Source: Candidatus Bathyarchaeota archaeon (GTDB lineage Archaea; Thermoproteota; Bathyarchaeia; TCS64). Taken from it: a stretch of 64,000 nucleotides of DNA. The stretch spans positions 256,001-320,000 of the forward strand of contig CAVYLP010000004.1 of the NCBI GenBank assembly GCA_963769425.1. Reading direction: 5' to 3'. The notes below the pieces were generated by a model, which did not search any database, had not been told where the DNA came from, and saw only the letters and a list, made by a program, of their open reading frames with translations. The position numbers were made by a program, and so were the translations under genes. Positions 23,570 to 38,768 of this stretch are shown in pieces (within the stretch, counting starts at the first letter, position 1; every line of letters starts with the position of its first letter).

Positions 23570-24367
23570 TTAATTAAAGTATATCGAAGAAGTAATTCTG
23601 TTTTGAAATAGTTTGGTTTTAGCTTCCCTGTCAATTAGCTCCACTGCTTTTATTATTGTTTTTCGATATTGTAATAATAAACCTTCATTTAATTCGATTT
23701 TTTGATTTATATAATATTTTTTATCCTGAATTTTTTTAATAAATTGTGAATTTATTTTACCATTATTGTGAATTAAAATGTTTCTTATCTCTCTAATTTC
23801 TATTATTTTATCATTAATTTTTTCATAATTTTGTAATGATAAATTTAATACATTTTTAATATAACTAATCATATCATCATAAGTCATATGTCCAAGAGAG
23901 TCTATTTCTTTTAAAATTATTTTTTCAAATACTTCATCAATGTTTTTGTATTCAAATATTTCTTTATAGTTAAGATTTTTATTTGAATTTTTAAGGAACA
24001 GTTGATATTCATAATGATAGTTATAGACTAAATCCATTATATAAAAATCGTAAAGTGAAACCGAAAAAATTAATATTTGATTTCTTATGAAAGGCATTAA
24101 TTCGGATATATTATTTTTATAATTTATTTCAGTTTTTAAAAATGAGTTAAGTTCCGTTGTTGGAAAAGTTATTCCATGTGTCATGCCTAGAATTTTATTC
24201 ATTTTTTCTTCATCGGGATTTTTAATTAACTCGTTATATGTCCACTCACTTTTCTTTATTTCGTTAAATGTCAATATGCTTGCAAAAACCTCTATTTTGT
24301 CAAGTTTATACATGTTATTCATAAAGTTATCATATATTTCTGTATATCTTTTAATTCTTTTACCCAT
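23570..24367 (-). CDS. Very AT-rich protein with a HEPN RNase motif
   Basis: E...RNILIH (R-x4-H); helical; composition foreign to the flanks. Confidence 0.65.
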   Translation of the reverse strand: MGKRIKRYTEIYDNFMNNMYKLDKIEVFASILTFNEIKKSEWTYNELIKNPDEEKMNKILGMTHGITFPTTELNSFLKTEINYKNNISELMPFIRNQILIFSVSLYDFYIMDLVYNYHYEYQLFLKNSNKNLNYKEIFEYKNIDEVFEKIILKEIDSLGHMTYDDMISYIKNVLNLSLQNYEKINDKIIEIREIRNILIHNNGKINSQFIKKIQDKKYYINQKIELNEGLLLQYRKTIIKAVELIDREAKTKLFQNRITSSIYFN

Positions 24368-24617
24368 ATTTTATTGTTAATTTATGAAATATTTAAAATT
24401 ATTGCAAGAGTAATTTATTGTTATTTACCTCGTTTCTCAACTCGTCCCTGTCATTTTTAAGAGAGAATAAACACATATATAAAAATAGATGCATATATTA
24501 AAAGAATGGAATATAGTGATACAGAAGTAACCACAAACAAAGCCGCATACAAACACAGACGCACAGAAAAAAGAGAGAAGAACTTTTTCCGTTTATGAGA
24601 AGCTACGCTCAGAAAGA

Positions 24618-25139: not shown

Positions 25140-25763
25140 TTGGGATGCGCCCCCTCTACTCGATCCGATTTGGCAGAGAAACCAGCTTACTACGACATCC
25201 GCGCAGAGCTCTGGAGGAGGAGCTGGGAACAGGCGAAGCCTCTGGGTGAGTTCCTCGTCGGCGCGCCGCAGGATCAAGCACAGCGTTGGGCCGAGTCAGC
25301 CGAGAGGGCGCCAGAGCTCACAGCGGACCAGAGAGCCCGCCTACAGGGGTACAACCGGACCGTGAGGGTGCTCATGGAGGGAGCCACGTGGTGTCTCGAC
25401 TGTGCCAGGATCACACCCTATCTGAGGGCGATCATGAATGCCATCGGGGAGATGGCGGAGCTGCGCCTCATCGATAGGGACGCCTCCCCCGAGTTGAGGG
25501 ACGAGCTCAAGATCATGGGCGCCCCTAGGGTGCCTCGTGTAGTCATCCTCAGCGAGGACTGGTTTGAGGTCGACCGACTGGGAGACCGGAGCCTCAGCGT
25601 CTACAGGAGCCGCATGGCTCGGGAGATCGGGAGGGGTGAGGACCACGGCGTCCTCAGCCCAGCCGCGAGGCAGGTAGAGCTCGCTGAGTGGGTCGACGCA
25701 CTCGAGCGTACACTAATTATACTCAGGACTGCACCTGCACTCAGGAAGCTTTACGGTGACTAA
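25140..25763 (+). CDS. Thioredoxin-family protein
   Basis: WCLDC active site; VP cis-Pro motif. Confidence 0.8.
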   Translation: MGCAPSTRSDLAEKPAYYDIRAELWRRSWEQAKPLGEFLVGAPQDQAQRWAESAERAPELTADQRARLQGYNRTVRVLMEGATWCLDCARITPYLRAIMNAIGEMAELRLIDRDASPELRDELKIMGAPRVPRVVILSEDWFEVDRLGDRSLSVYRSRMAREIGRGEDHGVLSPAARQVELAEWVDALERTLIILRTAPALRKLYGD

Positions 25764-25809
25764 CTGCCAGCGGGTATTATATCCATAAACGCAGCATCTT
25801 CTTCGTAAG

Positions 25810-25844
25810 ATTCTGCGAGGACATTGATAAAATTCATTGGATTC
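25810..25844 (+). repeat. attL: core direct repeat (25810-25821) plus inner inverted-repeat arm (25825-25844)
   Basis: ATTCTGCGAGGA then TGATAAAATTCATTGGATTC. Confidence 0.8.
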
Positions 25845-25887
25845 TTTTATAAACAGGGTCGCAGACACCCCTATTAGGTGCAGGGGA

Positions 25888-27093
25888 TTGGAGAAGGAGA
25901 GCAAGGCGAGCAGGGTTTGGCAACTCGAACTTTCGAGGCTGGCCCCAAACACGCGGGGAAGATATGTTCGATTGATGGACGCTTTTATGAGTCGTTTTGA
26001 TATTGCCACCCTTGAAGACCTTTACAAAATGCGAATAGAGGATTTGGAAGCCAAAGACTCACGCGATCAGGGACGAGTCGAGAGGCTTGTTAAAACCTAC
26101 ATGGACGAATTGGTTAAGCAGGGACAGAAGCCACAGACCGTAGCTCATGTTTTCAAAGCTGTTCAGCATTTCTTCAACTCTCAGGGTAGGAAAACAAAGC
26201 TGGAATTGGCTCCGAGGGATATTCCCAAGGGCGAATCTATTGGGCGAAGCCTGATCACGAAAGAGCAAATCAAACTCGTTTACGATAGTCCAGGTAGTGC
26301 GAAGCTGAGGAATCGCGCCCTGATGATGTTGTTAAAGGATACAGGGCTTCGAATCTCAGATGCACTCGCGTTTAATGTTGAGTCCTACACAACCGCGCAA
26401 ATAGTAGAAAATGAATCCAAAGAGCCATTCAAGATATTTGACCCCTCAGTCACGAAAAAATGCGGGGTTGTGGCTTACGTTGTCATTGGCCCAGAATCGG
26501 TTCAAGCTCTCGATTTGTACTTGAAGGAAAGGAGGGTGGGGGGGCTTTCGCAAAGTGATCCTTTGTTCGTAATCGAATATAACAATGCCTTTAGAGGATT
26601 TAGTAAAGGCGATAGACTGGGTGATGATGGAGGTAGCGAGGAATTCAGGAGGATAGCTAAAAACGCCAAAATCGGTAATAGGTTCGGCGCACACAGTTTC
26701 CGAAAATATTTCATAACCCAAATGCAAAGCGCTGGACTAAGCGAGCCCTGGATTAAGCGTCTTTGTGGTAAGAGCATTGGAGCGAGCGATAGCCCCTATT
26801 CAAAGCCACAAGACATGCCCGACCCCGAGGGAGTTTTCCCCAACCTGCTTGTCGCCTCCTATGTGAAGGCATACAAGGCCCTGCGAGTCTTTGGGGCAAC
26901 GGAGGAAGTGGAAGACCTTCGGGAGAGAGTAAAGGCGATTGAGTCTCTTGGCCCCGATTATTGGAAGGTCGTTATAGATGCTTCTAATGCTAAGGTTGAC
27001 AAACCAAAGGATAGTCCAAAGATCACCCTGACGATTGAGGAGCTTAACAGGCTCATAGATGAGAGACTAAAGGCAAGTAAACAAAATCGCTGA
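25888..27093 (+). CDS. Tyrosine recombinase/integrase
   Basis: DTGLRISD (R), AHSFRK (H-x2-R), LCGK, SPYSKP (Y); TTG start at 25888 after TATA-like TTTTATAAA and AGGTG RBS. Confidence 0.92.
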   Translation: MEKESKASRVWQLELSRLAPNTRGRYVRLMDAFMSRFDIATLEDLYKMRIEDLEAKDSRDQGRVERLVKTYMDELVKQGQKPQTVAHVFKAVQHFFNSQGRKTKLELAPRDIPKGESIGRSLITKEQIKLVYDSPGSAKLRNRALMMLLKDTGLRISDALAFNVESYTTAQIVENESKEPFKIFDPSVTKKCGVVAYVVIGPESVQALDLYLKERRVGGLSQSDPLFVIEYNNAFRGFSKGDRLGDDGGSEEFRRIAKNAKIGNRFGAHSFRKYFITQMQSAGLSEPWIKRLCGKSIGASDSPYSKPQDMPDPEGVFPNLLVASYVKAYKALRVFGATEEVEDLRERVKAIESLGPDYWKVVIDASNAKVDKPKDSPKITLTIEELNRLIDERLKASKQNR

Positions 27094-27477
27094 CTGCACC
27101 CCATTTTCCTTAACCCATCGTCTACCCATCTTTAGCTAATTCTGTACTCCTAAACATACACAATTCGGTATCTTTCATCTTTCGAGAACCACAGCGACAG
27201 GCCACGGCACACCTTTAATGAATGGTCTTCAACTATGGAAATCTGTGAGAGTATCAGCTAAATAGAGAGATTGTGTGTACTGTTAGGTCGGCACCATTCA
27301 TTGTATGCATAACTCTATATCGAAACCATACAACTGTAAGCTCGGCACCCCTTCACTCTATACAACTGTTACAATCACACATTTTAATCACACTCCAACA
27401 GCCTGTATTGACTACTGTTTATTGGGGTGAGTGAAGAATGACGGCATAAGAACAAGGCACTATTCTACTTGTGTATT

Positions 27478-27861
27478 CTACTCAGGCTGTGAGCGGTTAA
27501 CCTTTGTTTCCCAATCCTTAATCGGTAGAAAATTTTGATAGGCTTTACCACCTATTAAAACAAGTTCTCTTACTCTTGGAACATTGCCGACATAAGTGTC
27601 CCAAACTCCTACACTGTCTGGCGTATTGCTCCAAAACCAAGTTGTCTTGCATTTTTCGCAAAATAGCCCCTTTTCGTAATTGTGCTTTTTATTATAGGAC
27701 TTGTCAAGAGAATCATTTTGAAAAATTAAGCTCTCATCTGTAAAGACTTTGACATTTGGGTTTCCCTCACAATAGGGACAAGTGAGCAGGCGAGTTCCCT
27801 GTTTTCTTTCCTCTTCAGTCCCCTTTGGTATTGGTAGCATGTACTCCACTTTATCTATCAA
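27478..27861 (-). CDS. Zn-ribbon-like hypothetical protein
   Basis: CPYC...CEKC. Confidence 0.6.
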   Translation of the reverse strand: MIDKVEYMLPIPKGTEEERKQGTRLLTCPYCEGNPNVKVFTDESLIFQNDSLDKSYNKKHNYEKGLFCEKCKTTWFWSNTPDSVGVWDTYVGNVPRVRELVLIGGKAYQNFLPIKDWETKVNRSQPE

Positions 27862-27909
27862 TTACAAACACAAATATTTTAACATTCAACAAAGGTTAGT
27901 TCTGTAACG

Positions 27910-28179
27910 GTGTATAAAATGGCTGAAAAACTTCAAAATAGAAAGGACATTTTGAACATTCTCGTCGGGGCTTACATTGGCATTATAGCCTCATTGATCA
28001 CAAGCCTTTGGTTGTACTTTTTTCAAAAGATTTCACTAGACAAGCTTGATACTACTTCGACCGCTGGGCTGTTTATTGGAGTGTCGGTAGTTCTGGCGGC
28101 TTGTCTCATTTGGATGTTGAGATATGTCCAAAGACTGGTAAATGAAATAAACGAGCTTTCCAAGCATTCCCCCACTTGA
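27910..28179 (+). CDS. Small 2-TM protein
   Basis: Two hydrophobic helices. Confidence 0.55.
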   Translation: MYKMAEKLQNRKDILNILVGAYIGIIASLITSLWLYFFQKISLDKLDTTSTAGLFIGVSVVLAACLIWMLRYVQRLVNEINELSKHSPT

Positions 28180-28257
28180 AGCTTTGAATATATTAAACCC
28201 ATGTGTTTAATCCCAGCCCCTTGACATCTTTTGGGCTTGGGCTTCTTTCTGTAGGCT

Positions 28258-28795
28258 TTAGCTAGTTCTGTACTGCTCGAATTCTCGCCCTTCTTCCTTG
28301 TACTTGCTCCCCATGTCTGGGCTGACCTTCAATCCCTCTAAGAAGTAATCTATACCTCTACCCATTTTCCCACCTCTTCTTGTGTGCATATCGAGAGCAT
28401 AATCTGGTATCTCTGGCAACTTTACCCCAAACTCTCTGCCAAGCTCGACTGTTGGATATATTATTTTTAGAAGCTCGTCAACCTCCCTGCTCTTTCTTGA
28501 TCTTTGATAGAGCCAAAACTGCGTGAATTCGGAAAAGCCCCCTCTCTTTTGGCATGTTTTGATACTGCTTATTGAGAACATCAATTAGGACGCTCATCTG
28601 GTTATTAGCGACCCCAATATCCTCCGACGCCATCACAATGAGCCTGTTCCATAGCGCCGTTGGTTTGAATGATTCAAGTTCTACCGCCCAAAAAACCGCC
28701 TGCCTATCGTTGCCCCGCCTAATGTCCTTTTGTAGAGCTGACATCAATTCCCAAAAATCGTAGCCATTTTTAGTGATTGCTTTGCCTTCACTCAT
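28258..28795 (-). CDS. Stand-alone RarA/MgsA C-terminal-like protein (frameshift near 28500)
   Basis: SALQKDIRRG...LWNRLIVMASEDIG, then KSREVD...IPDYALDMHTRRG in a second frame; no Walker motifs. Confidence 0.7.
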
Positions 28796-28927
28796 GGAGT
28801 AAAAATCATCTCATCGGTTTTTAAGGCTGAAGCCCCCAAAATTCATTTGTTAAAAACTCTGCCCATTAGGGGGAAATTATCTTTAATGAGGTAAATTTAT
28901 TACAGTAAACTAATGATTTACTAAAAT

Positions 28928-29353
28928 ATGATATACGCCGAACCGTTCACAACAATTACGGGAATAATAGGGATCGGCTTATTGCCAATCGCATTTGTTA
29001 TATACTCCACTTTCAAGACGCCAATTAGTAATTATGTGGATAAGAGTTCAAAAAAATTATTCGAGTCTGATAAATTTAAGCAAATTGTCAACATCAAAAG
29101 CTTGGATCAATTTGACCTTGAGCTAATAAGAACATTTTATGATGATGTCGATAAAATATTTGATGTCAGGGGAGATTTCAGAAGAAGCGTTCTCTATTGC
29201 ATAATGTGCGGCGCACTTCTTACGCTCACATCATTGTTAAATTTAATAGATAATGCCTCGGTGGTTGTTATTCCTCTACTATTATATGGCATCTTCTTTT
29301 TTCTATTATTCCTCTACTATTTGTTTAGAGTGTTGCGTTATATCGCCTTTTAA
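28928..29353 (+). CDS. Hypothetical membrane protein (3 TM)
   Basis: Hydrophobic segments; AT-rich. Confidence 0.55.
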   Translation: MIYAEPFTTITGIIGIGLLPIAFVIYSTFKTPISNYVDKSSKKLFESDKFKQIVNIKSLDQFDLELIRTFYDDVDKIFDVRGDFRRSVLYCIMCGALLTLTSLLNLIDNASVVVIPLLLYGIFFFLLFLYYLFRVLRYIAF

Positions 29354-29408
29354 ATTTGGCACATCTTACTAAATCTTACTGACAACTGAATAAAAATCTT
29401 TATTAACT

Positions 29409-29687
29409 TTGTACTTATTTATTGTATGGAAAAAAATGAGTGATCCTTTTAAATCAATCAAAAAAATTTTTGTTGAAATAGCTGGTATTTGGGGAATTAT
29501 TGACCTTTTTAACTCACTTCAAACATTAGCTGATTTAAATAAATCTCTATCCTCTGGTCTAATTACTCAAAATGATTACAATAATCAAATAATTCTTCAA
29601 TTCGTGATTTATCCTGCTATTGTATCTATTTTGCTGGTCTCTGCGTGGAATTGGCTAAAGGAAACCCTACACACTAAAAAGAAATAA
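29409..29687 (+). CDS. Hypothetical small membrane protein
   Basis: Likely start MSDPFK; TM helices; GLITQNDYN SHOCT-like segment. Confidence 0.5.
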   Translation: MYLFIVWKKMSDPFKSIKKIFVEIAGIWGIIDLFNSLQTLADLNKSLSSGLITQNDYNNQIILQFVIYPAIVSILLVSAWNWLKETLHTKKK

Positions 29688-29762
29688 TGAAACTCCACTG
29701 ACCCTCAATCTATACCGGCCCTAGAGTGAGCACTTTCTGTTGTATAGAATGGGTGAATAGGA

Positions 29763-29911
29763 TTAAAAAATGGGAAATTTTGATAATATAATTAACTTTA
29801 TACTTTATACTTTATAGATCACTTTTTCTGAAAAGTTAAAAAAAGATGGAAAATTTGAACTTTATACTTTTTTTACTCAACTATAAAGTATAAACTATAA
29901 ACTATAAAGTT
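29763..29911. repeat. Iteron-like heptamer arrays, putative replication origin of the element
   Basis: ACTTTAT x3 (29795-29815) plus 29859-29865; four inverted copies ATAAA(G/C)T (29883-29910); AT-rich. Confidence 0.7.
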
Positions 29912-31140
29912 CATTTCTTGGACTTCCAATCCCTCAACTGCCACATTCCGTAAATGGGTTCGCCTGATGCGTTTGTTGGTTGCTCGAAATAGTTCTTTAG
30001 TGCTAAGTTGAATGTATTTGGGGAGCACTTTATTCGATTGTTGACAACTGAATAGATGTCACTACTGCGCATTGGGCCATTTTTTAGAACCTCCCTTATC
30101 TCCTGTGAAACCGAATGTCTCTTTCTATAAGGAATAGATTCTGCATCTGTTGTTTCATAGGATTTTGGAGGTGTAATGAAGTCGTCAATATTGACCATGT
30201 CTAGTGGGCTGTCAACCAAACTGTAAGCTAAAAGTTCACGAGTGATGTTTCCCTGATCACGCCTATCAACTGTGTCATAAAGGTGTGACTCATGAATTCT
30301 GGCGTATTCTTTGCCTCTATCAACTGACTTATTGTATAGTTCGATTGCCTGAGGTGGGATCACTGTCTCTCTTTTAGGGATCATGTCAAGCAATTTTTTA
30401 TTATATAATCCTAAGAGCCTCAATTTTGGATAGTTCCACTCTATTATGGGGTTCCTCATGTTTTTCTCGTGCTCATCGTCTGTAACATCTAACCGAATGA
30501 ATTTAACGCGAGACAAGAACGCATTTTCTTCAAGGAAATCCATAAGCGATGGTTCGAGTATGTGCGAACAAAATACAAACGTACTGTGGCATTTATAGTA
30601 GATTTTACGCTCATCGAGCTTTAAGCCGTCGTGATCTTCACGCCAAAACTCTAGTTCCGTGTCATCTATCTCGCTGACCTTTAGAATGTCTCTTACGACT
30701 TCATCGCCTTCGAGGAGCTTGTTAAGCACACCAATCTGTTTCTTTATTGCTTGAGCCGACTCCATGAAAGCCAAGAACTCTGTGATATAGACCATTTTAT
30801 AGCCATAGAACGCTGGGGGATGGAAGTGACCATCTTTAGCCAATCCTCCCATGCAAGACTGTATTGAGGTGTCGCTGAGGTTTACTGTGGGATAGCTCCC
30901 TGTTGGAATACAATTCTCGTTAAAGACCCTGATCATGGTATCCTTTAGCATGGCTGGAGGCGAGTAGATGAAAAGGTGCTGTCTGAGCCTAAACTCTGGA
31001 CTTCTTGCTAATGGCTGAGCGTTGCTTAAAATGAAAGCCTTCTCAAGTTCTGGGAAGACCTTCGCGCCTAGGTAACCCGTGGCCTCCTCGCCAATTTGCC
31101 GAGCTAGGTTAATTGGGTCAACCTTTCGAGCCTCGCCCAT
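29911..31140 (-). CDS. Divergent MCM-like AAA+ helicase with C-terminal wHTH
   Basis: HLFIYSPPAMLKD (Walker A-like), VYITEF (Walker B-like), LNKLLEGD, FLSRV (Arg finger); ATG at 31140 likely. Confidence 0.65.
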   Translation of the reverse strand: MGEARKVDPINLARQIGEEATGYLGAKVFPELEKAFILSNAQPLARSPEFRLRQHLFIYSPPAMLKDTMIRVFNENCIPTGSYPTVNLSDTSIQSCMGGLAKDGHFHPPAFYGYKMVYITEFLAFMESAQAIKKQIGVLNKLLEGDEVVRDILKVSEIDDTELEFWREDHDGLKLDERKIYYKCHSTFVFCSHILEPSLMDFLEENAFLSRVKFIRLDVTDDEHEKNMRNPIIEWNYPKLRLLGLYNKKLLDMIPKRETVIPPQAIELYNKSVDRGKEYARIHESHLYDTVDRRDQGNITRELLAYSLVDSPLDMVNIDDFITPPKSYETTDAESIPYRKRHSVSQEIREVLKNGPMRSSDIYSVVNNRIKCSPNTFNLALKNYFEQPTNASGEPIYGMWQLRDWKSKK

Positions 31141-31192
31141 AGTTTCAAGAGTCGAGGAGCCGGTGCTTAAGGCTTCGCGCGAGGGGAAGGGT

Positions 31193-31468
31193 TCACTTTG
31201 AACTGGTGTCAAAGCTGTCTGCCTCCTCTTCATTTTTAAGTTGCTCGATGTCTTCAAGGGTCAAGATGAATAATTTTGTACCCTCGGGATGTTTTTTGAC
31301 GCATGCAAAATATACATCTGGATACGTCTGGTGGATTGTTCTCTCAATTTCTTTCCATTGCTCGAAGCTGGTTTTAAAAACAACGCCAACAACGGCTGAA
31401 TTTCCTTTATTTTGACTAGAAATTTTTAATCGCTTAAAAACCTCTTCAATTTCATTATTTGTGTCCAT
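31193..31468 (-). CDS. Hypothetical protein upstream of the helicase
   Basis: MDTNNEIEEV..., ATG at 31468 preceded by GAGTGA. Confidence 0.6.
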   Translation of the reverse strand: MDTNNEIEEVFKRLKISSQNKGNSAVVGVVFKTSFEQWKEIERTIHQTYPDVYFACVKKHPEGTKLFILTLEDIEQLKNEEEADSFDTSSK

Positions 31469-31489
31469 TTTTTCACTCTTCCTACTGAA

Positions 31490-31910
31490 TGCTCCCAAGC
31501 AACTAGACCTGAGCCATTTGCGCTTTCACGCTTCGCAGGCCGCTTTCGCTTGCTGGGTTTCTGGAGCCAAGGTATGTCTCCTCGACCTTGGACTATCGTA
31601 GTCAATCGTTGATGGGTTCATCGGGCGAGAGTTGACCCGACACCCTTTCACTCCCATTGTGGCGGCTTGTCGGGTAGAGGATGTTGGCATCATAAAGCCC
31701 TACAAGTCGTTTCCACTGGATTTCTGTTGAGTATAACGGTTGCACATTGGAACCACCTTGGGCGGTGAAATTCCCCAAGGTGTTGAAGTGACGTTTCACC
31801 GATGCGCTAAATTCCAATGCACAACCGATCAAGTCGTTTCGCCTAATGGTGATGAGCCACAAGGTTACGCGACATGACAATGATTTCGGGAGCTGATGAT
31901 GCTCCCACTA
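31490..31910 (-). ncRNA. Candidate large structured RNA or 5' leader
   Basis: About 9 stems, GAAA tetraloops, 8-bp pseudoknot, G-U pairs mostly on the minus strand, upstream TATA-like element. Confidence 0.65.
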
Positions 31911-31993
31911 TATGTTATGCTTTCTATTCCGAGCGTTTTTCTCGTAACTTTAAGATTTTAAAGCCATTTATGCGAGTCTGTTTGGTGTTTTAG

Positions 31994-32590
31994 CTAAATC
32001 TGGATGATGATTTTTGAGTTTTTTCTGCTTTTCTTTACGGCTGTTTGGGTCTTGGTTTGTGGCTCTATGTCTTCGATGAGGTCTGATAGATTCCCCTGCA
32101 TTCTATCGACTGCCCCGGCTGTCCTTTTTAGGGTCGAGCCAATCATGCCACTGTAGGTTGTGATCCCATCACTGGTTTTTTTATAGAGCAATAGCCCATC
32201 CAAAGGCGTTAGTAGAATCATAACACGCTCCCAATCTGAGCCAAGAAAACTGTCTATATCGCTTTGAGAGAATTCGGTGCTGTGCAAATGACTGTGAACA
32301 CTGCCAATTGCGGTTGAGGGGATTTGATCGAAGACTATCTCGGCACGCTCCCCCAGCTGGTGGCCTGATAGAATGAACTCGCCATTTTGCTTCAATACCA
32401 GGGCCCCGACCTCCTTTCCCCGCCTGTTGGATAGGTCGCGCATTTCTTTCAATTGTTGGGTTATGGGATAGTCAACTAGAACCCTCGTCGGGGTTGATGC
32501 TAGAAAAACTGTAACCTTGTCTGGTTGTCCCTCAACATGATCTTTTACGGCGATAAGTTGCCCCTGTTGGTTGAATATTGGTTTTCGCAT
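31994..32590 (-). CDS. JAB/MPN+ (JAMM) domain protein
   Basis: KEVGAL...SVHSHLHSTEFSQSD = E...H-S-H-x6-S-x2-D. Confidence 0.75.
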   Translation of the reverse strand: MRKPIFNQQGQLIAVKDHVEGQPDKVTVFLASTPTRVLVDYPITQQLKEMRDLSNRRGKEVGALVLKQNGEFILSGHQLGERAEIVFDQIPSTAIGSVHSHLHSTEFSQSDIDSFLGSDWERVMILLTPLDGLLLYKKTSDGITTYSGMIGSTLKRTAGAVDRMQGNLSDLIEDIEPQTKTQTAVKKSRKNSKIIIQI

Positions 32591-32603
32591 TTTTAGACCT
32601 CAA

Positions 32604-32822
32604 TCAAGGGTGATAGAATACTTCGGCATCGATTTTCTTGATCCCATAAAAGCACTCGTGGAACAGCTCACGGTCTGGTGCTAGAACACAATCGCAATAA
32701 TTATCGCACGTACTGCATTCCTTTTTGGGAAAATACACGAAATTCTGCTCCATTTCCATCCAAGTTCCGCCGATCAGAATTGACTTTCCATCGGCACTAA
32801 TTTGGGGGGTTTCAGTTGTCAT
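32604..32822 (-). CDS. Small Cys-rich protein
   Basis: CSTCDNYCDC...C. Confidence 0.55.
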   Translation of the reverse strand: MTTETPQISADGKSILIGGTWMEMEQNFVYFPKKECSTCDNYCDCVLAPDRELFHECFYGIKKIDAEVFYHP

Positions 32823-33366
32823 TTTCTAATTCCGCCTTTAACTTTCTAGCTAAAATCTGTGCTTTCTTCCTGTCCTCGATGCTTGCGTTTGAAAACCGCT
32901 CGATCTCAGCCCAAGCTTGGATTTTGATTTCCTCGGCACTAGCCCCGATGTCGTCGTAATCGGTGGGAAGGACGGCATTTTTTGGCTTCCTTTGCTTCTC
33001 TATACCGAGTTCCTTCTTTAGAAGCGAATCAACTTTTTCTTGATTTATTGCGGTGTCGTGCAACTGCTCTTCCCGGGCGATTTCAAACACCTGTTCATCC
33101 TCGGTTCTGCGAACATCGTATTCTTTAACCCAAAGGGCCAAATTATGATCGACCTTCGCCAAATTCTGAATGTCTTTTGCTCCACCAATTGTCTGGCGTT
33201 TTACCTCCCTGCAATAAAAAATGATGTTTTTCATAAAATCCGACGAGCTTAGAGGATAAGCTAGCTCTTCCTGATAGTGTTTCGGTGGATTGGGGTGCTC
33301 TGAATCCCAAATTCTTCTGCGCCTCTTGTATATCTCGGCTAATTCAACTGACATCTCAAAATTCAC
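32812..33366 (-). CDS. Hypothetical helical protein
   Basis: Charged ORF in the co-directional operon. Confidence 0.6.
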   Translation of the reverse strand: MNFEMSVELAEIYKRRRRIWDSEHPNPPKHYQEELAYPLSSSDFMKNIIFYCREVKRQTIGGAKDIQNLAKVDHNLALWVKEYDVRRTEDEQVFEIAREEQLHDTAINQEKVDSLLKKELGIEKQRKPKNAVLPTDYDDIGASAEEIKIQAWAEIERFSNASIEDRKKAQILARKLKAELENDN

Positions 33367-33483
33367 CTTTTAATTTGAACTCTCCATTGTTGATTTTTTC
33401 CTCAATTTGTTGCGGGATAATGCCTACATGAACCACTTGATTGTTTTTATCGACGACAATTCCGGCCCTGACTTCCTTCTGAC

Positions 33484-33916
33484 TCAAAGCAGGTACCACC
33501 TCTCACCCGACCTTCGATTGACCCTTACCCATTGACTGAGACCTTTCAATCGAGGTTGATTATTTTCGACATCAAACATCCCCATCGAAGCATCCTGAAT
33601 TGGTTCGAAAACTTCCTGAACACTGCCACTGTTTCCAATGTATCCCTTGATTAGAAAGTCAACCAACTTGCACCCAACCCCCGCCATGCTCGACCCAAAA
33701 ACTGTATAGCAAGAGAAAATCGCTAGCCTTTTTGTATGCCGAGTCTAAATCTTCGAATCTTTGAGGCTTAAATGGTATCCAGATGTCCTCGAAGTTATTT
33801 TCTTTCGAGTGATAGACTTTCCCGGCCATAAAAACATCATCTTCGTTATACTCAATATTCTGAGTCTTTTTTCCCTTCATTATCATTATTGGAAAATGAT
33901 CTAATTTTATCGACAT
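33484..33916 (-). CDS. Hypothetical protein, probably one gene split by a frameshift near 33680
   Basis: Two overlapping ORFs, 33659-33916 and 33484-33687. Confidence 0.45.
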
Positions 33917-33977
33917 GATTTTTTTTCTCCTTTTTTTATTTGCTTGATTAATAGCCTTGATTTTGTGCGCTTAGATT

Positions 33978-34187
33978 TCATTTTTGAAGCATCTGCTCGA
34001 AAACTTTTACAAGCTTCGCTTTTCTCTCGGCGATCTTCTTCTGGACATCGGGGCTAATTTCCCCGTTAGCTAAACAATCCCCATTTTCGAGACCGTAAAC
34101 AAGCCCTGCAACCTTGGGCCTCTTTTTGAATCTATTAGTGATTATCTCGAACATTTTAATCACTTCTTTTTGATGAATTGACGGCAA
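33978..34187 (-). CDS. Small hypothetical protein (likely start MFEII)
   Basis: Follows the RHH gene in the operon. Confidence 0.5.
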   Translation of the reverse strand: MPSIHQKEVIKMFEIITNRFKKRPKVAGLVYGLENGDCLANGEISPDVQKKIAERKAKLVKVFEQMLQK

Positions 34188-34312
34188 AATATCTCGATTG
34201 ATTCCCGCACAATCACGCTTCTGCTTTTTCCTGTAATCTTTGATATTTGATCTAAAAGTTGTCTTTGCTCGGGTGTGAATGATACACTTGTGCTAATCCT
34301 TTTTCTCGGCAT
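34160..34312 (-). CDS. Ribbon-helix-helix (CopG-like) regulator, missed by the ORF track
   Basis: MPRKRISTSVSFTPEQRQLLDQISKITGKSRSVIVRESIEIFCRQFIKKK*, 50 aa. Confidence 0.85.
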   Translation of the reverse strand: MPRKRISTSVSFTPEQRQLLDQISKITGKSRSVIVRESIEIFCRQFIKKK

Positions 34313-34492
34313 GGTAGTGACCCCGCAACTACCTCAATATTACGTAATACTTTTTCAGGATCAAAGTGGGCATTATTTTGAGGCGGTTATGGGAAATTGT
34401 ATAATAAAATGGTCATTTAGACGGCTGTGCAGTTCTGCATATATTTATCGCAGATTTAATTTATATGAAAGTCTAAGATATTTAGGATTTAA

Positions 34493-35344
34493 TTGCCTGA
34501 TAAACTGGAAAAGCTAACGAGACAAGAAGCTAGTAAAGAATTAGCTTCATCAATACAATGGTTTCGAGAAAAAGGAAATGCCAGAACTGTTAGATGGTTG
34601 GAATTTATTTTAAATAACATAAAAATGGAGAACCCTTCAGATTATACGTCGGATATTTTCGAGGTTATTTCAGCTTATTATGCAGATGTTGAAGAACGAG
34701 GAGCTGGATTAAAAATTTGCTCAGAAACCATTGGAAGGATTATAATCAATGTTTTAAAAGGAAATAGGGGAGTCGATACATTTAGATCGTCATTATTAGA
34801 AATGTATCCACTTATTGTAAAATGGAGGATCACTCAGGAAAATTTAAAAAGGATATTGGATTTAAAAAATGAGAAACTAAGTATAAGTGCTCAATACCAT
34901 TTATTATTATTCTTATATCTAATTACTATAGAGGGATCATATTCTAATTGGATAAGGATATTATATAAGTTACAATGTATATCAAATCATAAAAAATGCA
35001 ATTTATCAAGTATTGAAGATATTACCCCTTTTAAAATTAAACAAAATATGATTGAAATGAATGCCGGTTGTAATATTTTTTTTAGTGGATACTTTGATGG
35101 TAATCTACGCAACGCCATCGGTCACGGCGATTTCGCATTTAATGAGTCAACTAACCGAATGATATTCAACCATACTTGGAATGGACAAATCAAATTTAGA
35201 GAAGAAATCAGTTATGATGAGTTCCTCGACATCTTCAGGTTGATTGATAATTTTATTGTAATAAATATCAATTATTTCTTTATTTTACGTTTAACCAGTT
35301 ATAGACATTTTTTTAAGAATTACCAAAAAACCCGTACAACCTAA
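34493..35344 (+). CDS. HEPN-motif protein (putative RNase)
   Basis: LRNAIGHGDF (R-x4-H); AT-rich. Confidence 0.6.
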   Translation: MPDKLEKLTRQEASKELASSIQWFREKGNARTVRWLEFILNNIKMENPSDYTSDIFEVISAYYADVEERGAGLKICSETIGRIIINVLKGNRGVDTFRSSLLEMYPLIVKWRITQENLKRILDLKNEKLSISAQYHLLLFLYLITIEGSYSNWIRILYKLQCISNHKKCNLSSIEDITPFKIKQNMIEMNAGCNIFFSGYFDGNLRNAIGHGDFAFNESTNRMIFNHTWNGQIKFREEISYDEFLDIFRLIDNFIVININYFFILRLTSYRHFFKNYQKTRTT

Positions 35345-35548
35345 TCATATGCGCAATTTTTATAGAAGAAGAAGTTTTTCAAAGTGCATTTGGTGTGGGA
35401 GAACCATCGACATAACAAAACAAGGAGCGCGCGCACATCCATTAACCAGGTGCTCTCATCCAAAAGGGCAGAATTAAAGGATATAACAAGAATCAATTTT
35501 AACTCAAAGCTTTTATCCGGAAATAACTACAAGTGTAAATGATTAATA

Positions 35549-36205
35549 ATGAAAAAATCGAGCAAGTTAATTCTCCTCGCGGGCCTTGTTGTTCTGATAA
35601 CCGCTTCTGTAGTGACCGCTCTCGCCCTCACATCACATCTAAAAGTCCAAGATGGCAAATTAACACTCTCTCTGACATCTGAGACTGTCCTTTTTAATGA
35701 CGATTTCAATGGTGTTTCCTTGGCTTCTCCTTGGCTCGTCGAGGACACGGGATCAACCATCACGGCCTATTTTCCATTCACTCCACCATCGGGACATTAC
35801 ACGGTCTCTGCTAGAGTAAGCTCCTCACAACTAGCAGCCTTCGCCTTGCGTCTGCATAGTGGATCAACGCCAATCACGGGTTCTATAAGTGGGATACAAT
35901 TGGAGATGGATCCTGGTGTTTCAGGAAAATGGTTCATGGCTTCTTGGGCTTCTTCTGGTGGGTGGACTTGGAACAATATTGCCGGCCCTGTTAACATGAA
36001 TACTTGGTACATTTTGGAGATGGTTGTGCAACAAAGCCCCTTTCAAGTAACCTATAACGTGTATAGTGACAACAAGCAAGCATTATTGGGGAGTTATACA
36101 ACAAGCAGTTTTTCTGTCACATACCAGAGCATTGACTACATTTGCCTTGAACTGTGGACGGGGCCTTCAAGTTACAGTATTGATTGGATTAAAGTAACAT
36201 CCTAA
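35549..36205 (+). CDS. Secreted or anchored beta-sandwich (ConA/lectin-like) protein
   Basis: N-terminal signal/TM; LFNDDFNG...WYILEM...IDWIKV pattern. Confidence 0.55.
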   Translation: MKKSSKLILLAGLVVLITASVVTALALTSHLKVQDGKLTLSLTSETVLFNDDFNGVSLASPWLVEDTGSTITAYFPFTPPSGHYTVSARVSSSQLAAFALRLHSGSTPITGSISGIQLEMDPGVSGKWFMASWASSGGWTWNNIAGPVNMNTWYILEMVVQQSPFQVTYNVYSDNKQALLGSYTTSSFSVTYQSIDYICLELWTGPSSYSIDWIKVTS

Positions 36206-36256
36206 AACCTATAATTTGAGTCTAGTAATTTGTAACTTTTCAATTGCCACCAATAA

Positions 36257-37262
36257 TTAAGATGAGCTTATAGTAGAAATTTGTTTTAGAGTTTCTTGAT
36301 AACTATTGTATAAATAGTTAAGGAGGACAATGGAAATCGTAATCAATGGTGCCAATTTTTCAAGCATGTCCTTGAAAAGTTGCAAAAATTCTGAAGCAAA
36401 CTTTACTAAGAGATTGCCAATCTCTTTAAAGATAGCTAACAACCCCGTTATTACTTTTTTTTCAAATATAAGAGCAATGAAGCCTAATCCAATCAATAGC
36501 ATAATCCAATCGGGTAATTTAGAAATAGCCTTTATCGTGCCACTTGCAAGTCCTATGAAAAATTTAGTGATCTCCGCTTAATACCTCAAGTAGAGCACGA
36601 ATAATCGCGACTCCTAACTGAAAAATAGCATAAAATATATTTGGTAAAATCTTTGAAATTGTAAAAAATGAAAAACTTCCCTTTTTAAAAATGGATATTA
36701 AACTTCCTATATTTTTTATTTTCCATGTCTTGACAGAAGGCTGGTCTATGATGTCAGAGTCCTTTGTGATAATTCCATGCGCTTTTATTTGGATACTTAA
36801 AGCTAAAAAAGAGACATCATTTGGGTCTCTCTTTCCAATGATAGAGTAACCCTCAAACAAAGCCAGAAGATTAGTGGGATTAAGGATAGTTAATCTCGGA
36901 AGTATGTCGGTGTTCCAAGTCTTCATTAGAATTTCTTTATTTAATTTCATTTTCACAGATAGTTCCTTGATGTGCCGTTCTACCTCCTCTATGAGTGTAA
37001 AAGGAGCGTATAGATGTAAGAAGGGCTCTGTGATTAGTTTGTGCAAAAAGGATTCTCCACGTTTGGCATAAGAAATTAAATTTGAAATTATCGAGCTGGA
37101 ATCAACAACTAGTTTCAAATCTAGTTTGAATGTATTACCAACAAAATTAGATATGTTCTGCTCGAAATACGCCTTTAAATCAGTAATAAGATCAACTGGA
37201 AAACCCTCTAGAATCCCCTCAATCGACTTATCTATTTTTCGAAAATCGACATGAGTTATCAT
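36257..37262 (-). CDS. PIN-domain nuclease fused to a hydrophobic C-terminal region (frameshift near 36575)
   Basis: LVVDSS, EEV, RDPNDVSFLAL and ITKDSD; the frame continues as ...EITKFFIGLASGTIKAISKLPDWIMLLIGLGF... Confidence 0.7.
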
Positions 37263-37463
37263 TATTATTTAAAAATACTAAATGGAAGTCTAAAAGGTTT
37301 ATGCACACTTACATTGACATGGCGCGCGCTCTCAAGGAACTTATACGCCCTCCTTTTTATGAAATTTTATCTCGAAATAGAGAGGTTAATGCGGGCACCC
37401 CTAGAAGTCTTATAACCCCTCAATGCGTACTAATTTTCTAATTGGAGGACTCCACTAAATGAG

Positions 37464-37496
37464 GAATCCAACGAAAAATATCATATTCTGCGAGGA
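37464..37496 (+). repeat. attR: inner inverted-repeat arm (37464-37483) plus core direct repeat (37485-37496)
   Basis: GAATCCAACGAAAAATATCA (16/20 match to the reverse complement of the left arm), then ATTCTGCGAGGA. Confidence 0.8.
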
Positions 37497-37502
37497 ACCT
37501 AC

Positions 37503-38768
37503 TTGGCAGATACTATAATTGAGGTACCCGGGCAGCCTTGGTTCAAGGATAAACCCATTCAACTCACATTCCCAGCCGCTTGGAAGGTCCAGAGATGCAA
37601 GATGGCGGGGGAGGACCAGAAGGGGCTCACGAAGGCCCAGATCAGGAAGGCCATTAGGAATCCCCTCGGAACGAAGCCATTGGCGAAGCTCGCGAAGGAC
37701 CGGAAGGAGGCGGTGATAATCTTCGATGACTCCACCCGTCCCACGAAGACCCACCAGTACGCACCCATAGTGCTCGAGGAGATTAAGAAGGCCGGGATCA
37801 AGGATGAGAACATCCGCTTCATAGTCGCCCCCGGTAGCCACGGCACCTTCAGTCGCCAGTTCTTCGCCAAGAAGCTCGGCGAGGACATCCTCGAGAGGTA
37901 CCCAGTCTACAACCACAACCCCTACGAGATGTGTAAGAACCTCGGCACAACCAGCTACGGGACACCAGTCTGGGTGAACGCCGAGGTCGCCGCCTGCGAC
38001 CTGAAGATCGGCATAGGCAGCGTCCTCTACCACAGGATGAGCGGCTTCAGCGGCGGCGGCAAAATAATCAGCCCCGGCGTCGCGGGCATCGAAACCATCC
38101 GCGCAAACCACGGCCCGCTCGGCGGCTTCGGCCCCGGCCTCACCCCCCACAAGACAACCGGATACCTCCGCAACGACGAGAACGTGCTCCGCCTCGACGT
38201 TGAGGAGACCGCCCGCATCGCCGGCCTAGACTTCAAAATCGACTCCGTCCTCAACCTCAAGCGAGACCCCATAGAAACCTACGCAGGTGACTTCATCCAG
38301 ACCCACAGAAGGGCGTCCGAAGGCGTCGCCCGCTGGCACAAGACTGAGTCCCCGAAGGAGATGGACATCGTCGTCGCCAACAGCTACATGCGCCCCAACG
38401 AGCCCTACCTAGGACTCTGGCCCGCCCAGGAGTCTGTGAAGCAGGACGGCTCCGTCGTCCTCATCTGTAACGACCCCGAGGGAGACATCAACCACTGGAT
38501 ATTCAACAACCACGGCAAGTACGCCGCTGCGAGCCTCTGGAGCGGCAAGGCGAGGAACCTAACACGCGGCGCTCGTCTCATAGTCTACAGCCCCTACCCA
38601 CTCAAGACACTCGAGTGGCGCCTCGGCGCCCCCGGCACTGTGACGTGGTGCAAGAAGTGGGACGAGGTCATCGAGGAGCTGAAGAAGTACCACAAGGGGA
38701 GCCCCAGGGTCGCCGTCCTCCCCGACGGCACGAGTGGCATTCCCGCCTCCTTCCTCGACAAGTCATAA
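37503..38768 (+). CDS. Lactate racemase (LarA) domain protein
   Basis: DDSTRPT, GSHG, HNP, LGTTSYGTPV and GFSGGGK motifs. Confidence 0.85.
   Translation: MADTIIEVPGQPWFKDKPIQLTFPAAWKVQRCKMAGEDQKGLTKAQIRKAIRNPLGTKPLAKLAKDRKEAVIIFDDSTRPTKTHQYAPIVLEEIKKAGIKDENIRFIVAPGSHGTFSRQFFAKKLGEDILERYPVYNHNPYEMCKNLGTTSYGTPVWVNAEVAACDLKIGIGSVLYHRMSGFSGGGKIISPGVAGIETIRANHGPLGGFGPGLTPHKTTGYLRNDENVLRLDVEETARIAGLDFKIDSVLNLKRDPIETYAGDFIQTHRRASEGVARWHKTESPKEMDIVVANSYMRPNEPYLGLWPAQESVKQDGSVVLICNDPEGDINHWIFNNHGKYAAASLWSGKARNLTRGARLIVYSPYPLKTLEWRLGAPGTVTWCKKWDEVIEELKKYHKGSPRVAVLPDGTSGIPASFLDKS

Follow-up and report, generated by a model that had tools for sequence, protein, structure and literature searches.

The 64,000-nt stretch of DNA analyzed here (hereafter the window, meaning the whole stretch at its full length) lies within a 2.55-Mb archaeal metagenome-assembled genome of Candidatus Bathyarchaeota and contains a low-GC island at ~25,800–37,500, in which GC content is 40%, compared to ~60% in the host DNA. 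Since this 40% GC block has a tyrosine integrase at one end and is bracketed by an exact 12-nt direct repeat, the island is supported as an integrative element, and its size would be ~11.7 kb if the two repeat copies, which are candidates for att cores, indeed have that function. On the minus strand of the island, a string of small open reading frames (ORFs) runs from 33916 to an ORF of 198 amino acids (198-aa ORF) and is followed by a non-coding gap of 495 nt (31499–31993), a 91-aa ORF and a 448-aa ORF that contains an MCM-like AAA+ gene. The gap, which exceeds all other non-coding stretches of the island in length and is situated inside this same-strand gene string, had been described in an initial annotation as a candidate for a pseudoknotted RNA of ~420 nt, conceived as a large non-coding RNA, a ribozyme or a replication-control leader. 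Here we report that the robust feature of the gap is a domain of ~99 nt, not a 420-nt RNA, and weigh what this domain may do. Positions of all features are collected in Table 1.

Folding of the gap was evaluated against shuffled sequences. As a whole, the 496 nt folded better than any shuffle on each strand (z = −3.07 and −3.17 for the minus and plus strands, 0/100 shuffles as good for both). By sub-domain, the central 99 nt reached −44.3 kcal/mol on the minus strand (z = −5.17, 0/200 shuffles as good) and −38.8 kcal/mol on the plus strand (z = −4.54, 0/200), the minus strand thus being better by 5.5 kcal/mol. On the other hand, the 5′ piece (31845–31935, 91 nt: z = −0.83, 40/200) and the 3′ part (z = −0.22, 84/200) were at chance, and a region with two or three hairpins showed a marginal excess (z = −2.02, 6/200). 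The 3′ part had initially been taken for a multibranch domain with two GAAA loops; the sequence is there, with one good GAAA tetraloop hairpin near 31520–31531, but its folding does not rise above chance. Of the proposed 420 nt, the excess is confined to the ~99 nt of the core. In addition, an RNALfold z-score scan of the full window on both strands gave 421 local structures at z ≤ −3 (192 on the minus and 229 on the plus strand), among which the central domain ranked first overall (z = −6.09, minus strand) as well as second on the plus strand (z = −5.25). When the island was scanned in 120-nt segments, 14 of 195 segments were at z < −2 on at least one strand, and three adjoining segments below −2 were found in the gap only.

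The central domain is built on an inverted repeat of 16 nt (31737–31752/31812–31827), which is 88% complementary as DNA; read on the minus strand, its two mismatches are G-U pairs, in agreement with the initial annotation. This stem extends to 17 bp (P1: 31811–31827 with 31737–31753, consisting of 13 Watson-Crick and 4 G-U pairs by our count) and closes a junction holding a 5-bp hairpin and the previously noted perfect 9-bp hairpin P3 (31754–31782, arms 31754–31762/31774–31782). Mean pair probabilities were 0.985 for P1 and 0.996 for P3. All further stems listed earlier, including the hairpin 31888–31893/31901–31906, were likewise present in the sequence, and a minus-strand sequence reported to occur twice corresponds to an 11-nt direct repeat on either side of the domain; around its two copies 14 of 16 aligned positions agree, and no other close copy was found within the window.

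The loop of P3 had also been proposed to form an H-type pseudoknot. The underlying 8-nt complementarity (31763–31770 with 31794–31801) is real, and the order of the strands on the minus strand (31801–31794, 31782–31774, 31770–31763, 31762–31754) is such that the two helices interleave as an H-type pseudoknot demands. In the geometry of such pseudoknots, however, the connecting loops must be long enough to span the grooves, and loop 3, which would have to cross an 8-bp helix, has here a length of 0 nt (31763 is directly adjacent to 31762). Because no linker to the 3′ arm of P3 is left, the full 8-bp helix is sterically unlikely to coexist with P3, and at most a shortened helix would be compatible with the 9-bp hairpin. 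As a nested alternative, the 8-nt pairing gave −33.6 kcal/mol compared to −44.3 kcal/mol for the minimum-energy fold (a cost of ~10.7 kcal/mol, with −9.7 kcal/mol for the duplex and a pair probability of 0.001). The complementarity may represent an alternative conformer or a partial loop contact at most.

The gap is non-coding. In a leave-one-out codon score, 16/16 island genes were at +0.12 to +0.29 bits/codon, compared to −0.05, −0.06 and −0.05 bits/codon for the three minus-strand ORFs of the gap (92, 55 and 59 aa, overlapping in different frames) and +0.04 and +0.07 bits/codon for two plus-strand ORFs. Protein searches were carried out for the 92-aa ORF (ORF92, 31602–31880, TTG start), the 55-aa and 59-aa ORFs being judged by codon usage alone. 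ORF92 gave 2 word candidates with 0 at E ≤ 0.1, had no match in Pfam or PHROGs and was absent as a called gene, even as a self entry, from a 5.8-billion-cluster protein collection; the coding conservation that had been considered for it is thus not borne out. Regarding base composition, the gap is GC-richer than the island as initially stated (48% versus 40%), but the contrast is weak because the adjoining coding stretches reach 45–53%.

The TATA-like box of the initial annotation was located as TTTAAA at 31962–31957, ~30 nt past the stop codon with which the upstream gene ends. It is the sole TATA-like hexamer on the minus strand in 31400–32050, so that none lies closer to the 91-aa ORF. If this hexamer serves as promoter, transcription would start near 31930. 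No T-run of 4 or more occurs on the minus strand before 31440, i.e. there is no U-tract terminator, and because the single TATA-like box sits at the 5′ edge of the gap and such a T-run is missing, the downstream genes would need a transcript that crosses the gap.

Relatives of the gap were sought in its own genome, in ~700 related genomes and in phage, plasmid and viral collections. Across the 64-kb window, none of 4227 Rfam models (including group I/II introns, small ribozymes, riboswitches, RNase P and SRP) matched at gathering score; with lax filters, 31000–32600 gave 5 matches at E 1.3–9.9, all 22–74 bits under the cut-offs and all to snoRNA, sRNA or miRNA families, none of them a ribozyme or intron. 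The gap accordingly matches no known RNA family. One of these weak matches, to snoZ103, was considered for a C/D-box reading and rejected by eye, as box D is missing. BLAST of 31470–31990 against the own genome returned the self match and 7 others of 15–29 nt (E ≥ 0.6); a miniature inverted-repeat transposable element (MITE) or repeated mobile hairpin was discarded, there being no second copy in the genome. Against 60 relatives, matches appeared in 30/61 genomes, all of 16–35 nt and at chance level (best E 0.044), and 400 genomes of the class yielded two short matches (22 and 35 nt). Neither nhmmer against six loci with MCM-like homologues nor blastn in distant mode against phage and plasmid collections gave a match. 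A single-sequence covariance model (R1: 116 nt, 29 bp) found nothing in 150 relatives (0/150) or at the loci L017–L022; two matches (23.4 and 18.3 bits) among 151 genomes of the family carrying MCM-like homologues were rejected as chance because no island protein lay nearby. A pattern scan of viral contigs gave 0 matches, and the 4 matches of a second such scan were unrelated 66-nt tandem repeats in phage contigs.

Downstream of the gap, the ATG at 31468 described as leading to the MCM-like gene opens the 91-aa ORF, which precedes that gene and is an orphan, its protein search having returned the self match alone. The real start of the MCM-like protein is probably an ATG near 31140, because homologues align only from residue ~45 of the 448-aa ORF. 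The protein had no match in Pfam. A profile of 35 family members compared with the PDB sequence set matched archaeal MCM chains (4fdg_B, E 4.7e-7; 8x7t_D, E 5.3e-5), mainly over the C-terminal lid and winged helix (profile positions ~250–420), with weak matches of the P-loop region to MCM4 (E ~1e-3); the label MCM-like is reasonable on account of these matches to archaeal MCM chains. In the alignments, a lysine, a glutamate and arginines are invariant at AAA+ motif positions, and the Walker A lysine is present in 14/14 sequences. Two Walker A glycines are S and A in the window copy, which therefore may be a weakened or inactive ATPase judging from these residues; its closest relative keeps both glycines. 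The protein is nearly an orphan. Among 1.84 billion representatives, 42 relatives were found at E ≤ 1e-3, the best non-self one being 37% identical and the nearest carrying the source label Candidatus Bathyarchaeota, and homologues of 24–31% identity occur in 5 of 400 other genomes of the class. The closest relatives comprise the NCBI protein MCX6648647.1, encoded on a 50.8-kb contig, and three JGI proteins. Related loci were sought in viral, metagenome and genome contigs with the MCM-like protein or its alignments and in viral contigs with the 198-aa ORF and a 184-aa ORF, and none were found. Another public assembly contains the element in near-identical form (ENA contig, 14,291 nt), with the MCM-like gene in three pieces; this splitting may be due to assembly indels rather than biology.

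As for the element itself, the 12-nt repeat is the longest exact word common to 25601–26000 and 37251–37650 (chance expectation ~0.01 by our arithmetic). Its left copy is just upstream of the integrase start and its right copy just upstream of a LarA-like host gene; a thioredoxin-like gene flanks the island on the other side. A PIN_2-domain protein (36564–37262, minus strand, E 2.6e-12) is encoded at the right end of the island. On the minus strand at 28258–28795, ORFs of 105 and 108 aa overlap and both match a single PHROG ATPase family, and the first of them also has a weak match to MgsA_C. They are probably parts of one gene split by a frameshift, or else the C-terminal remnant of a truncated AAA+ gene. 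The host genome has one Cdc6_C-domain match, taken as the Orc1/Cdc6 gene, and none was noticed among the island ORFs, where no family search aimed at Orc1/Cdc6 was made. Outside the island, 23570–24400 is a separate, extremely AT-rich patch (19–23% GC) in the 60%-GC host with a 265-aa ORF lacking a Pfam match, and looks like another foreign insertion. Integrated archaeal mobile elements with MCM-family helicases and tyrosine integrases have been catalogued, for example, in Thaumarchaeota (PMC6563490). The present island resembles them in its ~11.7-kb extent, 40% GC in a ~60% GC host, integrase, 12-nt repeat and MCM-like gene, but differs in that its MCM-like protein is very divergent and has no Pfam match.

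Table 1. Positions and properties of the features discussed (strand given relative to the window; a dot stands for no strand)
Feature	Position	Strand	Properties
12-nt repeat, left copy	25810–25821	+	Exact; brackets the island; candidate att core
Tyrosine integrase of the element	25837–27093	+	Pfam Phage_integrase, E 2.3e-12; PHROG integrase, E 1.4e-18
AT-rich block	29790–29915	.	Tandem 7–8-nt units in inverted orientation; z −4.4; better origin candidate
MCM-like AAA+ gene	29911–31140	−	C-terminal winged helix; full ORF 448 aa, 29911–31257
91-aa ORF	31193–31468	−	Directly downstream of the gap; coding score +0.286 bits/codon
Proposed multibranch domain with GAAA loops	31486–31572	−	3′ part of the gap; at chance
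Two or three hairpins	31590–31720	−	Marginal folding excess
11-nt direct repeat, copy 2	31703–31713	−	With preceding bases forms mini-ORB-like dyad
Central domain	31733–31831	−	99 nt; P1, P3 and a 5-bp hairpin
8-nt complementary pair	31763–31801	−	31794–31801 with 31763–31770; concentric with P1
11-nt direct repeat, copy 1	31830–31840	−	127 nt from copy 2
6–7-bp hairpin	31888–31906	−	Near the putative 5′ end; surroundings at chance
TATA-like TTTAAA	31957–31962	−	Candidate promoter
198-aa ORF	31994–32590	−	Upstream of the gap; coding score +0.22 bits/codon; weak DUF4329, E 0.019, below cut-off
12-nt repeat, right copy	37485–37496	+	Exact; candidate att core

The interpretation that we favor, though tentatively, is that the gap is a structured mRNA leader or spacer for an operon of the 91-aa ORF and the MCM-like gene. 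It would be a non-coding leader or intercistronic spacer transcribed from the minus strand together with this replication module, with the 91-aa ORF first and the MCM-like gene next. With a start ~25–30 nt downstream of TTTAAA, the leader would be ~460 nt long and free of an internal U-tract terminator. The 99-nt domain could then be a cis-acting element of the mRNA that affects its stability or processing, or that serves proteins as a binding platform. A conformational switch is conceivable too, because the P3 apical loop can pair with a sequence 5′ of P3 or, instead, with any of three further copies of GUGAAA. One of these copies overlaps the region where ribosomes would bind for the 91-aa ORF, and switching of this kind would adjust how strongly the replication genes are expressed. 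What suggests this leader is that the gap is non-coding, holds the best fold of the window, folds better on the sense strand by 5.5 kcal/mol, has both mismatches of its inverted repeat as G-U pairs on that strand and is part of a same-strand gene string, with its single TATA-like box at the 5′ edge; its transcription and regulatory role are predicted from these sequence features. Among the roles put forward in the initial annotation, a replication-control leader is plausible.

Several observations weigh against the leader. No DNA or structural homologue of the gap was found in any collection searched, and five distant loci with full-length MCM-like homologues (L017–L020 and L022, the short L021 match being left out) have no conserved long upstream gap. 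Three of the four sub-domains are at or near chance. The two strands fold almost equally, as seen in the z values of the whole gap and in the plus-strand core, which is also extreme, and the strand signal is close to a coin flip because the two G-U positions lie side by side and may have arisen in one mutational step. Coding DNA in other parts of the island also yields single segments with z between −3.0 and −4.4; in the 120-nt scan, four segments within ORFs were more extreme than any segment of the gap. GUGAAA is found in 4 copies against 0.29 expected, and 15.5% of shuffles show some 6-mer at 4 or more copies; once all k-mers are counted, neither this enrichment nor that of GAAA (12 copies versus 5.2 expected) is significant. 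Lastly, a leader of 460 nt would be unusually long by archaeal standards.

Among known systems, such a leader comes close to the structured leaders and antisense-controlled pseudoknots that occur upstream of bacterial plasmid rep genes (IncI-alpha/IncB repZ/repA leaders, ColE1 RNA II). Like these, the gap is a long non-coding stretch that, with a small ORF, stands ahead of a replication gene, and the loop of its stable hairpin is complementary to other stretches of the leader, one of them near a ribosome-binding region. Unlike these, it belongs to an archaeal host and an MCM-like replication protein, has no sequence or Rfam relation to them, and no antisense promoter or countertranscript was identified for it. 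For archaeal elements of the Thaumarchaeota type, no report of a structured leader was found in a limited literature search. A more specific version of the leader, in which the gap of this Bathyarchaeia-type element encodes a regulatory leader RNA restricted to its lineage, and in which the UUUCAC loop of P1/P3 toggles between its internal partner and the GUGAAA copies and thereby sets the amount of MCM-like protein, is a speculation to which we give little weight.

Nearly as likely as the leader, albeit doubtful on its own account, is that the gap functions at the DNA level, as a protein-bound control region in which a 91-bp composite palindrome is flanked by the 11-base direct repeats 127 bp apart. 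The putative binders would be the MCM-like protein through its winged helix, a small regulator encoded by the element, or the host Orc1/Cdc6, and the site could be an operator of the replication operon or a second initiator-loading site. A DNA palindrome predicts the near-equal folding of both strands that was observed. Moreover, two inverted repeats, I1 (31737–31827) and I5 (31763–31801), have the common centre 31782, both 16-nt arms start with TTCCAATG, the spacing of the direct repeats corresponds to ~12 helical turns by our arithmetic, and strong palindromes were found near the MCM-like gene in 5/5 homologous loci scanned, on varying sides. Against a simple operator, half-sites 59 bp apart would be unusual.

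The relation of this putative DNA site to archaeal origin recognition boxes (ORBs) is equivocal. ORB and mini-ORB inverted repeats are found at oriC, and TTCC is stated to be ‘perfectly conserved’ in PMC1904270. In the gap, a minus-strand 12-mer next to copy 2 of the direct repeat has 10 contiguous bases in common with the 13-bp Pyrococcus mini-ORB quoted in PMC1904270 and is unique in the 2.55-Mb genome. The gap resembles ORBs in having inverted repeats with TTCC...GAA-type words and in its position beside a replicative-helicase-like gene. However, the mini-ORB-like dyad carries GGAA but ATCC in place of TTCC, and the P1 arms carry TTCC without matching GAA spacing. With 1 mismatch allowed, the 12-mer had 16 matches in the genome compared to 14 for its reversed control, none of them near the host cdc6 gene, and the ORB-like dyad pattern was not enriched in the window (11 matches versus 16.8 expected). 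Nor is there an ORB cluster around an AT-rich unwinding element: the window contains one such dyad, and the 59-bp spacer between the arms is ~54% GC by our count. At the host cdc6 locus, no ORB repeats were recognizable for comparison.

A more typical origin-like block, moreover, lies immediately 3′ of the MCM-like gene (29790–29915), where the repeat units flank an AT-rich spacer. The same architecture with different unit sequences recurs at 2728–2840 of L017, right after a distant MCM-like homologue, and blocks of this type are candidates for the replication origin of this element family. With this better candidate at hand, and its architecture repeated in L017, the gap need not be the origin.

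It is less likely, and in our estimate improbable, that the gap is a spacer without function, i.e. a decayed gene or recombination scar whose palindromes are fortuitous or the remnant of an old hairpin-forming insertion. The orphan character of the element fits this idea (37% identity to the nearest MCM-like relative, self match alone for the 91-aa ORF), as does the fact that most of the gap folds at chance; approximately 3 perfect 8-bp inverted repeats are expected per 650 nt at any distance by our arithmetic. The three overlapping minus-strand ORFs could be pieces of a frameshifted gene, and 28258–28795 looks frameshifted elsewhere in the island. On the other hand, no local fold in the 128 kb of strand that were scanned is as extreme as the central domain, and none of its shuffles equaled it. 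Moreover, the searches returned no protein resembling ORF92 (the two shorter ORFs, of 55 and 59 aa, having been scored by codon usage alone), and there is no second genome copy that would mark a MITE.

An independent ~420-nt pseudoknotted non-coding RNA or ribozyme with its own promoter, as first imagined, is very improbable. The TATA-like box at the 5′ edge, the z value of the whole 496 nt, the good GAAA tetraloop hairpin and a GAAA count that 0/1000 shuffles attained would agree with it, but in 17.7% of shuffles some 4-mer reaches 12 copies, folding of the 3′ and 5′ parts does not exceed chance, and no terminator-like T-run lies ahead of the next ORF. No ribozyme or intron family is among the 5 Rfam matches at E ≤ 10 (best E 1.3), and a large RNA of this kind has no specific support; the pseudoknot would in addition leave 0 nt across the 8-bp helix, and homologues were not found. 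A small protein gene in ORF92 or the 55-aa ATG ORF (31526–31693) is scarcely credible, for although the frames are open, their codon scores fall below those of 16/16 island genes, and no homologues, called gene or Pfam or PHROGs match support ORF92.

A structured leader of the operon of the 91-aa ORF and the MCM-like gene hence remains our tentative choice, with a DNA-level site close behind. Being a single orphan sequence with one striking hairpin, the gap carries no general claim, and serves as a pointer for related elements or transcriptomes. If it is a DNA site, it would mark the anchor of element replication or of its regulation. The toggling leader, if true, would provide archaeal mobile elements with their first described case of replication control by RNA. 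And should the hairpin domain work as an RNA, this would represent a rare case of cis-RNA control of the replication genes of an archaeal mobile element, in a little-studied uncultured lineage.

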